Origin: a virus
Length of the DNA: 64,000 nt
Direction: 5' to 3' (one strand)
Virus genome (UHGV): UHGV-0149956
The position numbers and the translations under genes were made by a program. The notes under the pieces are model-generated. The model was not told the DNA's origin, made no database searches, and saw only the letters and a program-made list of their open reading frames with translations. Position 1 is the first letter of the stretch. Each line of letters begins with the position of its first letter. Below, one piece after another: positions 37,779 to 40,168 of this stretch.

Positions 37779-38810
37779 ATGTCCAATTTACTGACCGTAC
37801 ACCAAAATTTGCCTGCATTACCGGTCGATGCAACGAGTGATGAGGTTCGCAAGAACCTGATGGACATGTTCAGGGATCGCCAGGCGTTTTCTGAGCATAC
37901 CTGGAAAATGCTTCTGTCCGTTTGCCGGTCGTGGGCGGCATGGTGCAAGTTGAATAACCGGAAGTGGTTTCCCGCAGAACCTGAAGATGTTCGCGATTAT
38001 CTTCTATATCTTCAGGCGCGTGGTCTGGCAGTGAAAACTATCCAGCAACATTTGGGCCAGCTAAATATGCTTCATCGTCGGTCCGGTCTGCCACGACCAA
38101 GTGACAGCAATGCTGTTTCACTGGTCATGCGACGGATCCGAAAAGAAAACGTTGATGCCGGTGAACGTGCAAAACAGGCACTGGCGTTCGAACGCACTGA
38201 TTTCGACCAGGTTCGTTCACTCATGGAAAATAGCGATCGCTGCCAGGATATACGTAATCTGGCATTTCTGGGGATTGCTTATAACACCCTGTTACGTATA
38301 GCCGAAATTTCCAGGATCAGGGTTAAAGATATCTCACGTACTGACGGTGGGAGAATGTTAATCCATATTGGCAGAACGAAAACGCTGGTTAGCACCGCTG
38401 GTGTAGAGAAGGCACTTAGCCTGGGGGTAACTAAACTGGTTGAGCGATGGATTTCTGTCTCTGGTGTAGCTGATGATCCGAATAACTACCTGTTTTGCCG
38501 CGTCAGAAAAAATGGTGTTGCCGCGCCATCATCCACCAGCCAGCTATCAACTCGCGCCCTGGAAGGGATTTTTGAAGCAACTCACCGATTGATTTACGGG
38601 GCAAAAGATGACTCTGGTCAGCGATACCTGGCCTGGTCTGGACATAGTGCCCGTGTCGGTGCCGCGCGAGATATGGCCCGCGCCGGAGTTTCTATACCGG
38701 AGATCATGCAAGCTGGCGGCTGGACCAACGTAAATATTGTCATGAACTACATTCGTAACCTGGATAGTGAAACGGGGGCAATGGTGCGCCTGCTGGAAGA
38801 TGGCGATTAG
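37779..38810 (+). CDS. cre: Cre tyrosine recombinase
   Basis: 343 aa MSNLLTVHQNLPALPVDATSDEVRKNLMDMFRDRQAFSEHTWKMLLSVCRSW..., recalled as Cre; adjacent to loxP. Confidence 0.97.
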   Translation: MSNLLTVHQNLPALPVDATSDEVRKNLMDMFRDRQAFSEHTWKMLLSVCRSWAAWCKLNNRKWFPAEPEDVRDYLLYLQARGLAVKTIQQHLGQLNMLHRRSGLPRPSDSNAVSLVMRRIRKENVDAGERAKQALAFERTDFDQVRSLMENSDRCQDIRNLAFLGIAYNTLLRIAEISRIRVKDISRTDGGRMLIHIGRTKTLVSTAGVEKALSLGVTKLVERWISVSGVADDPNNYLFCRVRKNGVAAPSSTSQLSTRALEGIFEATHRLIYGAKDDSGQRYLAWSGHSARVGAARDMARAGVSIPEIMQAGGWTNVNIVMNYIRNLDSETGAMVRLLEDGD

Positions 38811-38827: not shown

Positions 38828-38844
38828 ATTGCTCTAATTATTTG
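38828..38844 (+). promoter_or_regulatory. C1 operator-like site
   Basis: ATTGCTCTAATTATTTG between cre and the next gene. Confidence 0.45.
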
Positions 38845-38860
38845 ATATTTATGGTGACAC

Positions 38861-39172
38861 ATGCGGAAGGATTTCAAAATAGACGGAAAATATGTGGTGC
38901 TGTCTGTAAGCTCTCAAATTCAGTCACCATCTGTCATTGTCACCGTAAAGTTGAGCGATAGGATGCCTGATATCGACTCGATATCTGTTGCGTTCCCCGT
39001 TAAAAGCATGCGGAGTGCTGAACATTTTGTGATGAATGCAACGGAGGAGGAAGCGCGGCGCGGGCTTACTAGAGTGATGGGGGAATTTGGCGAACTCCTG
39101 GGTAAGGTAAACAATGCCCTTTCAATCAGTTCAGCAAGATCCAAAGCGTTAACAGCTTCCATGATGAAATAA
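38861..39172 (+). CDS. cra: hypothetical protein downstream of cre
   Basis: 103-aa ORF; named by synteny only. Confidence 0.45.
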   Translation: MRKDFKIDGKYVVLSVSSQIQSPSVIVTVKLSDRMPDIDSISVAFPVKSMRSAEHFVMNATEEEARRGLTRVMGEFGELLGKVNNALSISSARSKALTASMMK

Positions 39173-39303
39173 AAAAAGCCTGGCAAGGAGCCAGGCTGCA
39201 CAAAAGAGCGGGTTTGTATTCCGCATCCAATCAATCAAGAAGGAGTATAGCACACAGGTACTGAAGTGAAAAAATGTGATTCGCGATTAACAAAATACCT
39301 ACC

Positions 39304-39333
39304 ATTGCTCTAATTGATTGCTATAATTAAGCC
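39304..39333 (+). promoter_or_regulatory. two overlapping C1 operators with embedded -10 (ref promoter)
   Basis: ATTGCTCTAATTGATTG and ATTGCTATAATTAAGCC; TATAAT at 39323. Confidence 0.55.
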
Positions 39334-39387
39334 GCAGTTTTTGTCAACTACGAAGACGTTGCCATTACTTAACTCCTTGACATCATT

Positions 39388-39414
39388 GGCGGCCATTAGG
39401 CCGCCTTTTTTTTT
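39388..39414 (+). terminator. terminator-like hairpin in the ref leader
   Basis: GGCGGCC-ATTA-GGCCGCC followed by nine T, ending 5 nt before the ref ATG. Confidence 0.5.
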
Positions 39415-39419
39415 GCCAT

Positions 39420-39980
39420 ATGAAAACAATCGAACAAAAACTTGAACAGCGCCGCGAGTGGCAGAAGGCAGCCAGAGAACGAGCGATCGCTCGGCAACGG
39501 GAAAAGTTGGCTGACCCCGCCTGGCGAGAATCGCAATATCAGAAAATGCGGGATTCTATCGACCGCCGTATCGCTAAACAGAAAGAGCGCCCACCAGCCA
39601 GCAAAACGCGGAAAAGTGCGGTAAAGATAAAATCTCGTGGCTTGAAGGGGCGAACATCGACAGCGGAGGAACGGAGCATCGCCAATGCTCTTGGCGCTCT
39701 CCCCTGCATTGCCTGCTACATGCATGGAGTAATATCTGAAGAGGTATCTCTGCACCATATCTCCGGTCGTACCGCGCCGGGTTGTCACAAAAAGCAATTG
39801 CCCCTTTGTAGATGGCACCACCAGCATGCAGCACCGGCTGAAGTAAGAGAAAAATACCCCTGGCTGGTCCCTGTTCATGCCGATGGTGTGGTTGGAGGCA
39901 AGAAAGAATTCACCTTGCTGAACAAGTCAGAGATGGAGTTGCTGGCTGACGCCTATGAGATGGCAAACATCATGCACTAA
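39420..39980 (+). CDS. ref: Ref recombination enhancement protein (HNH nuclease)
   Basis: 186 aa; basic N-terminus; HNH-like core CIACYMHG...SLHHISGR...CRWHH. Confidence 0.85.
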   Translation: MKTIEQKLEQRREWQKAARERAIARQREKLADPAWRESQYQKMRDSIDRRIAKQKERPPASKTRKSAVKIKSRGLKGRTSTAEERSIANALGALPCIACYMHGVISEEVSLHHISGRTAPGCHKKQLPLCRWHHQHAAPAEVREKYPWLVPVHADGVVGGKKEFTLLNKSEMELLADAYEMANIMH

Positions 39981-40168
39981 TAAATATATTATTTTTAATC
40001 TTAAATGATTGACAACTGACAAGTGACTTGAGTCAGAATCATCACACGCCCGGTACGGATGGATCCCTTTTCAAATATTCCATGGACGGCACAGTCTGAG
40101 TACCGGGCGCTACCTTCAGTTGTATTGCTAAGCCGCCGCTGGTGGCTTTTCTTTTTTGTAGGGGCGCT

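Follow-up and report, generated by a model that had tools for sequence, protein, structure and literature searches.

The ref gene of this P1-type phage is probably expressed through a control region in which a promoter gated by the C1 repressor (P2ref) is followed by an attenuating terminator in the leader and by a start codon that lacks a Shine-Dalgarno sequence and would be poorly translated. To judge from the title of Windle, Laufer & Hays 1988 (J Bacteriol 170:4881), which speaks of 'attenuator-antiterminator control', a ref control region with a repressor-controlled promoter and a stop signal was published for P1 in that year, so ours is a re-discovery of something already known. That region is also annotated in the reference genome, and what is new here is comparative support: the terminator is under selection for its structure in two clades, the proposed second operator lacks conservation, and both the missing Shine-Dalgarno sequence and the predicted internal promoter belong to the P1 clade alone. 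The question of how ref mRNA is made and translated is thereby sharpened, but no new kind of system is described.

By the window we mean the whole stretch of DNA that was analysed, 64,000 nucleotides of virus genome UHGV-0149956. Between 39150 and 40000 its identity to phage RCS47 is 99.8% and that to phage P1 96%; its Ref protein matches RCS47 Ref at 100% identity and P1 Ref at 94.6%. The 17-bp asymmetric consensus of the P1 C1 operator, ATTGCTCTAATAAATTT, has 15 matches in the window against 0.27 expected, which identifies the window as a P1-type genome using the P1 repressor system. The gene order at the locus, cre-c8-ref, is that of P1, and the P1 record AF234172 (Lobocka et al.) annotates P2ref, Oref, a predicted P1ref and the ref start at homologous positions. 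The features that matter for the argument are the following.

37779-38810: cre, upstream of c8
38861-39172, plus strand: c8, an open reading frame of 103 aa, counterpart of c8 in P1 AF234172 and the gene preceding ref
39299-39304, plus strand: weak -35 of P2ref, CTACCA, at a position homologous to the annotated P1 P2ref -35
39304-39320, plus strand: C1 operator Oref, ATTGCTCTAATTGATTG, 14 of 17 consensus positions, 19.3 bits
39317-39333, plus strand: operator-like second repeat copy, ATTGCTATAATTAAGCC, overlapping the first site by 4 nt
39319-39320 and 39322-39327, plus strand: TG and TATAAT of the extended -10 of P2ref, whose -10 is annotated in P1
39334-39387, plus strand: leader between the predicted P2ref start (about 39334) and the hairpin
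39359-39386, plus strand: predicted promoter P1ref (TTGCCA, 16 nt, TG-A-CATCAT), found by promoter scan and labelled 'predicted' in the P1 annotation
39388-39405, plus strand: terminator stem-loop GGCGGCC-ATTA-GGCCGCC, all seven pairs G-C, 4-nt loop
39406-39414, plus strand: U-tract T9, a terminator element that might also serve the ribosome as an S1 or standby site
39415-39419, plus strand: spacer GCCAT between T9 and the ATG at 39420, with no Shine-Dalgarno sequence
39420-39980, plus strand: ref, an open reading frame of 186 aa encoding a RecA-dependent HNH nuclease
39971-39987, plus strand: operator-like CATGCACTAATAAATAT, 16.6 bits, covering the ref stop codon at the place of Omat (former Op2/Op2b)

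The last of these corresponds to Omat of the P1 annotation, which lies at 2628-2645, at the 3' end of ref.

A sequence-only reading of this locus had placed two overlapping C1 operators with an embedded TATAAT in front of ref. The TATAAT is there, at 39322-39327, and the first operator stands: it is the 15th best 17-mer of the 127,968 in the window, and it fills the spacer and the TG of TGnTATAAT, so that operator and promoter overlap. The second operator does not survive. It shares 12 of the 17 consensus positions and, with 12.8 bits, ranks 19th, where operator-grade sites score at least 19.3 bits, and its position 7 is A, whereas all 15 operator-grade sites have C there. Among 51 distinct related leaders its core takes the forms ATTGCT, ATTGTT, ATTGAT, ATCGCT, ATTTCT and GGAGGT; the ATAAT that follows the core is kept in the 51, but it formed part of the search pattern and its constancy is partly by construction. 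The sister-clade leaders (those of JK004 and of Salmonella plasmids, described below) have no second ATTGC, and the P1 record lists Oref, formerly Op1/Op2a, as a monovalent operator. The weak score, the variable core, the absence from the sister clade and the P1 annotation together speak against a bivalent C1 site. First and second site are copies of a 13-bp tandem repeat, ATTGCTCTAATTG followed directly by ATTGCTATAATTA, of which a Shigella plasmid has one copy only. The repeat seems better read, and most simply, as one operator plus an extended -10 promoter, TG-C-TATAAT.

Downstream of this promoter, the 7-bp GC hairpin and nine T reported at 39388-39414 proved exact in their coordinates, ending 5 nt before the ref ATG. 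A terminator scan reports the hairpin, whose predicted fold is worth -16.2 kcal/mol; the T9 begins at the first base past the stem on the plus strand, and the minus strand has no T-run. The palindrome occurs once in the window, and among about ten terminators on both strands of the 64 kb it is the sole one with a perfect all-GC stem. The preceding gene, c8, has no plus-strand T-run terminator of its own, as the hairpin past its stop codon carries a T-run on the minus strand only.

Absence of the hairpin from functional relatives was what the sequence-only reading had itself named as a refutation; within the operator-controlled lineages the outcome favours that reading. We gathered Ref homologues from phage records, plasmids and IMG/VR contigs; a contig search with the Ref protein of the window alone returned only near-identical loci. 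Wherever an operator is followed by a Ref-type start within 150 nt, the hairpin is present (83 of 83 loci), with compensatory changes in the stem. In an alignment of 51 distinct leaders every one of the 357 stem cells is paired. The clades differ at pairs 2 and 6, which change from G-C to A-U and from C-G to U-A, and five sequences carry G-U and U-G wobble intermediates, one of them (L114) lying between both stem types. Stem pairing or covariation at the observed level was reached by none of 500 shuffles. The loop is free to vary (ATTA, ATCA, TAAA, GAAA, TTCG, TTAG). Full pairing, compensatory changes and a free loop indicate that the stem is selected as a structure. By stem, loop, U-tract and covariation, the hairpin and U9 would class as a canonical strong intrinsic terminator. 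The T-run has 6 to 10 residues in relatives, with a mode of 8, and the spacer between it and the start codon in ref-bearing relatives of the P1 clade is GCCAT in 57 loci, GACCAT in 17 and ACCTT in 2. Outside the hairpin the leaders of the two clades have little sequence in common and no conserved structure; a predicted hairpin at the 5' end of the leader (39334-39362) is confined to the P1 clade.

The hairpin is not a general feature of Ref genes, being absent upstream of the Ref genes of D6, D6-like, Vibrio and Alteromonas genomes, and no P1-type operator was seen in the upstream 200 nt of any of these. The D6 and D6-like genes have a Shine-Dalgarno sequence, AAGAGG; the Vibrio gene has TAAGGTG before its start and a terminator 100 nt upstream; and the Alteromonas gene is closely preceded by an upstream open reading frame.

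More informative are the loci of a sister clade, which consists of Cronobacter phage JK004, Salmonella P1-like plasmids and three IMG/VR contigs. Their Ref is only about 65% identical to that of the P1 clade and their upstream genes are unrelated to cre and c8. Their order of parts is that of the window: an operator, here ATTGCTCTAATAATTAT, comes first, the TATAAT lies 18 nt from the start of that operator, and a leader, a hairpin of 7 bp and the homologous start codon follow. Their hairpin is GACGGTC-TTCG-GACCGTC followed by T7-8, and two compensatory pairs distinguish it from the P1-clade stem. The sister clade differs in having a 77-nt leader (counted from the -10 through the last T of the T-run, a distance of 86-87 nt in ref-bearing P1-clade leaders), no 5' hairpin, no P1ref and a spacer of 10-13 nt with GGAG or GGGA. 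After the U-tract, two of its starts have a usable Shine-Dalgarno sequence (GGAGATAAACA-GTG at -6.4 kcal/mol and GGGATAAACA-GTG at -4.0 kcal/mol), and that of JK004, GGGCCAATCAATC-ATG, is weak, at -2.4 kcal/mol. The Salmonella Shine-Dalgarno sequence is predicted to pair with a UCUCC/AUCCU segment just upstream of the hairpin, and in JK004 a GGGC is predicted to pair with an upstream GCCU. Since most of the sister clade has a usable Shine-Dalgarno sequence, its absence is a derived trait of the P1 clade, not a conserved design. In the sister clade the stretch from the operator promoter to the hairpin holds no further predicted promoter, so ref would have to be expressed there by read-through, and as no equivalent of P1ref is predicted in those leaders, read-through of the terminator would be the ancestral route to ref mRNA.

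It is nevertheless possible that the P1 clade has found a way around its terminator. Ref mRNA might come mainly from the internal promoter P1ref, with the hairpin stopping only the cre, c8 and P2ref transcripts and serving as an insulator; we think this unlikely. We are equally doubtful of the corollary that P1ref transcripts start in the 5' arm or the loop, cannot form the terminator and carry a U-rich 5' UTR of about 25 nt. P1ref scores 9 of 12 in the promoter scan with an extended TG, is a predicted promoter in the P1 annotation, and would start at about 39391-39395, inside the hairpin; this predicted start bears on the second refuting condition named in the sequence-only reading, which concerned where transcription begins relative to the hairpin. 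Its TG-A-(C/A)ATCAT is kept across P1-clade leaders, divergent E. albertii ones included, and its -10 lies within an 11-nt stretch found only in this clade, which gained those 11 nt and lost the Shine-Dalgarno sequence. Ronayne et al. describe occlusion of 'one of the ref promoters' by C1, and P1 lysogens show ref-dependent phenotypes; both fit a second promoter. Yet P1ref is a prediction, and C1 at Oref, which does not cover it, would not repress it, although ref behaves as a C1-controlled lytic gene. The sister clade, moreover, has the operator-hairpin module without P1ref, so a bypass cannot be the ancestral logic of the region.

We prefer to see the terminator as an attenuator of P2ref transcripts, which raises the question of whether read-through is regulated. 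A specific antiterminator, either an alternative structure of the leader RNA or an induced phage factor, might relieve termination, a possibility that we hold to be rather improbable. The 1988 title names an antiterminator, and when C1 is inactivated ref mRNA rises to a lower level than that of ssb, dmt and kilA and peaks slightly later than these other C1-controlled genes (Ronayne et al.). As long as the 3' arm has yet to be made, the 5' arm is also predicted to pair with an upstream segment, which reads GUUGCCA in the window and ACUGUCA in sister-clade leaders. This alternative pairing, however, is matched or bettered by 56, 226, 410, 108 and 19 of 500 shuffles in the five leaders compared; in four of the five it does no better than shuffled sequence, and we see in it no support for an RNA antiterminator. 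The ref leader has no credible leader peptide. The one candidate, a 43-codon open reading frame with a TTG start at 39314-39445, begins before the predicted transcript start and has no Shine-Dalgarno sequence, and the T6-T10 polymorphism breaks its frame relative to ref; we rejected it both as a leader peptide and as a means of translational coupling. Nor did a search of Rfam yield a family that reaches threshold, the only matches being sub-threshold and driven by the terminator, and a known RNA family was rejected. We know of no N- or Q-type antiterminator described for P1.

The same module also occurs without ref. At least 45 PLSDB plasmids match the ref-less junction at 80% coverage or more, and in the examples that we read, operator, leader, hairpin and a T6 directly abut a convergent KilAC gene; this KilAC junction is absent from the window. 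Operator, promoter, leader and terminator could on this evidence be an independent gene that C1 represses and whose product is an RNA of about 80 nt, with ref expression a by-product of read-through, and a CUCC-type pyrimidine motif is found upstream of the hairpin in both clades (CUCC at 39374-39377 in the window). We consider this very improbable. Against it stand the poor conservation between clades of the leader beyond the hairpin and its lack of a conserved structure, as well as the decay of the ref-less copies in the stem (an A-C mismatch in L019), in the T-run (T6) and in the CUCC motif; retention of the ref-less unit would also be explained by recombination at a module boundary. Slightly less improbable, but still a long shot, is a mobile module with two outputs, a C1-repressed RNA of about 80 nt with an anti-Shine-Dalgarno-like CUCC and a trickle of read-through, in which the P1-clade U-tract would have replaced the Shine-Dalgarno sequence as the sole recruiter of ribosomes. 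If true, one and the same sequence would be both the signal to stop transcription and the signal to start translation in the P1 clade.

That the ref start lacks a Shine-Dalgarno sequence, as the sequence-only reading had noticed, is borne out by calculation: the 18 nt before the ATG score +1.9 kcal/mol against the anti-Shine-Dalgarno sequence, which ranks ref 61st among the 63 open reading frames of at least 120 aa, whose median is -4.7. The ATG at 39420 is the true start: no earlier start codon follows the in-frame stop that precedes it, and the N-terminus it gives, MKTIEQK, aligns with MELTEQQ and MILTEQQ and with Vibrio MAKTIEEK; and because the T-run varies between 6 and 10 residues in relatives, there is no coding sequence upstream of it. 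The U9 lies at -14 to -6 relative to this AUG. A U8 tract adjoining a ribosome binding site raised expression of a reporter about 3-fold (PMC3575828), and ribosomal protein S1 binds A/U-rich leaders (PMC2176067). By analogy with these cases the unstructured U-rich surroundings are a plausible and obvious candidate aid to ref translation.

Taken together, the elements suggest the following course of events. In the lysogen, C1 bound at Oref (39304-39320) would block P2ref (TG-C-TATAAT, 39319-39327). Once C1 is inactivated, transcription would run from about 39334 through the 54-nt leader into the terminator, and most transcripts would stop at the hairpin and U9 as RNAs of about 80 nt; as ref would then be present only on transcripts that read through, the terminator would act as an attenuator. 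It may also shield ref from cre and c8 transcripts, given that the only T-run at the hairpin behind c8 is on the minus strand. On the read-through mRNA, initiation at the AUG would presumably depend on S1 or standby binding to the unstructured U-rich and A-rich surroundings and would be inefficient. The combined effect would be to keep the level of a RecA-dependent nuclease that damages the host very low and to restrict it to lytic growth. What the sequences themselves show is the set of elements, their near-identity to those of P1 and a hairpin conserved with compensatory changes. In this scheme we infer the efficiency of termination, the route of read-through (passive or factor-assisted) and S1-dependent initiation, whereas control by C1 and induction of ref upon C1 inactivation are taken from the literature.

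That literature is in keeping with the scheme. Ronayne et al. found that ref mRNA goes up when C1 is inactivated and that Ref lowers lysogenisation, a further paper places ref transcription under c1 control, and H-NS also binds the ref control region. The clear induction of ref mRNA upon C1 inactivation means that the terminator is leakier than it looks, or that RNA polymerase is helped through it. We found no transcription start mapping or Term-seq data for P1 in the literature, and an RNA-seq paper on P1vir makes no mention of ref. The double gating by C1 and an attenuator-like leader terminator that had been proposed from the letters of the window agrees, as far as the wording of the 1988 title goes, with what was described for P1. 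Because Ref harms the host and lowers lysogenisation, tight control in several layers makes biological sense.

How does the region compare with known systems? The closest is P1 itself, whose ref leader is 98% identical and has the same operator, -10, hairpin and start codon. It differs from the window by a T8 in place of the T9 and by four substitutions, and the H-NS motif CGATAAA of P1 reads CGATTAA here. Like the trp and pyrBI attenuators, the ref region places an intrinsic terminator between a promoter and the first codon of the regulated gene; it differs from them in lacking a leader peptide, and its predicted antiterminator helix does not exceed chance in four of five leaders. Another likeness is to E. 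coli rnd, whose K-12 sequence we read: a hairpin, ACGCCGG-TTAAT-CCGGCGT, followed by T8 stands in its 5' UTR, so that both genes have a GC hairpin and a U-tract upstream of a poorly signalled start. The U-tract reportedly has a role in rnd translation. Unlike ref, rnd is not under a repressor operator. The translational analogy is loose, since rnd has a 24-nt spacer with a weak Shine-Dalgarno sequence (AAGAG) and a UUG start, whereas ref, with its AUG, has a 5-nt spacer free of purine runs, and its U-tract, only 5 nt from that AUG, occupies the usual place of a Shine-Dalgarno sequence.

On the minus strand of the spacer between c8 and ref, the sequence at 39168-39272 resembles a small-RNA transcription unit, in which about 65 nt separate a promoter-like element from a terminator:

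39272 to 39244, minus strand: promoter-like TTTTCA, 17 nt, TG-C-TATACT.
39197 to 39177, minus strand: perfect terminator AGCCTGGC-TCCTT-GCCAGGCT with T7, adjoining the c8 stop.

The putative unit folds at -23.2 kcal/mol (z = -3.2), and the window and P1 agree throughout it but for one additional A, located in the A-run directly after the c8 stop. The P1 record (AF234172) carries no annotation at this position, and Rfam returned sub-threshold matches only.

The leader of ref also occurs where the gene itself is missing. Some P1-like plasmids without ref still have the operator, leader, hairpin and a T6 run (L019, 680-810; L020, 700-810), and the ref-less junction is matched in at least 45 PLSDB plasmids. 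P1 homology in the ref-less plasmids stops exactly behind the T-run, at the end of a convergent KilAC antirepressor gene. In L019, the hairpin stem contains an A-C mismatch and the 13-bp repeat is present in one copy only. Another T-run of T6 only is seen in the leader of phage vB_EcoM-673R5 (L004). The record of this phage has no annotated ref CDS, and tblastn gives a 77% match across 147 aa; the locus (1388-1940) is possibly a ref gene in decay.

The sister clade's Salmonella sequences carry a Shine-Dalgarno (GGAGA or GGGAU) 3' of the U-tract, and immediately upstream of the terminator lies a partner, UCUCC or AUCCU, with which it is predicted to pair (L016, 1140-1200; L015 and L017 alike). 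The hairpin would then sit inside an outer helix, which would conceal the Shine-Dalgarno on read-through transcripts. Cronobacter phage JK004 differs from the Salmonella sequences, in that its GGGC is predicted to pair instead with a GCCU farther away.

Outside the ref leader lie an operator-grade C1 site and an operator-like sequence:

38828-38844: operator-grade C1 site ATTGCTCTAATTATTTG, 22.7 bits, ending 16 nt upstream of the c8 ATG.
39971-39987, plus strand: operator-like site CATGCACTAATAAATAT, 16.6 bits, spanning the ref stop codon.

The P1 counterpart of the first is ATTGCTATAATTATTTG, where no operator is annotated in the P1 record; C7 has become A, thereby creating a TATAAT, and this C/A toggle is the same as that in the second repeat at ref. 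The second is the counterpart of Omat (formerly Op2b), which is annotated on the minus strand in P1, whereas the window site scores on the plus strand. Upstream of ref, P1 has a reported H-NS motif, CGATAAA (Ronayne 2016), where the window reads CGATTAA (39283-39289).
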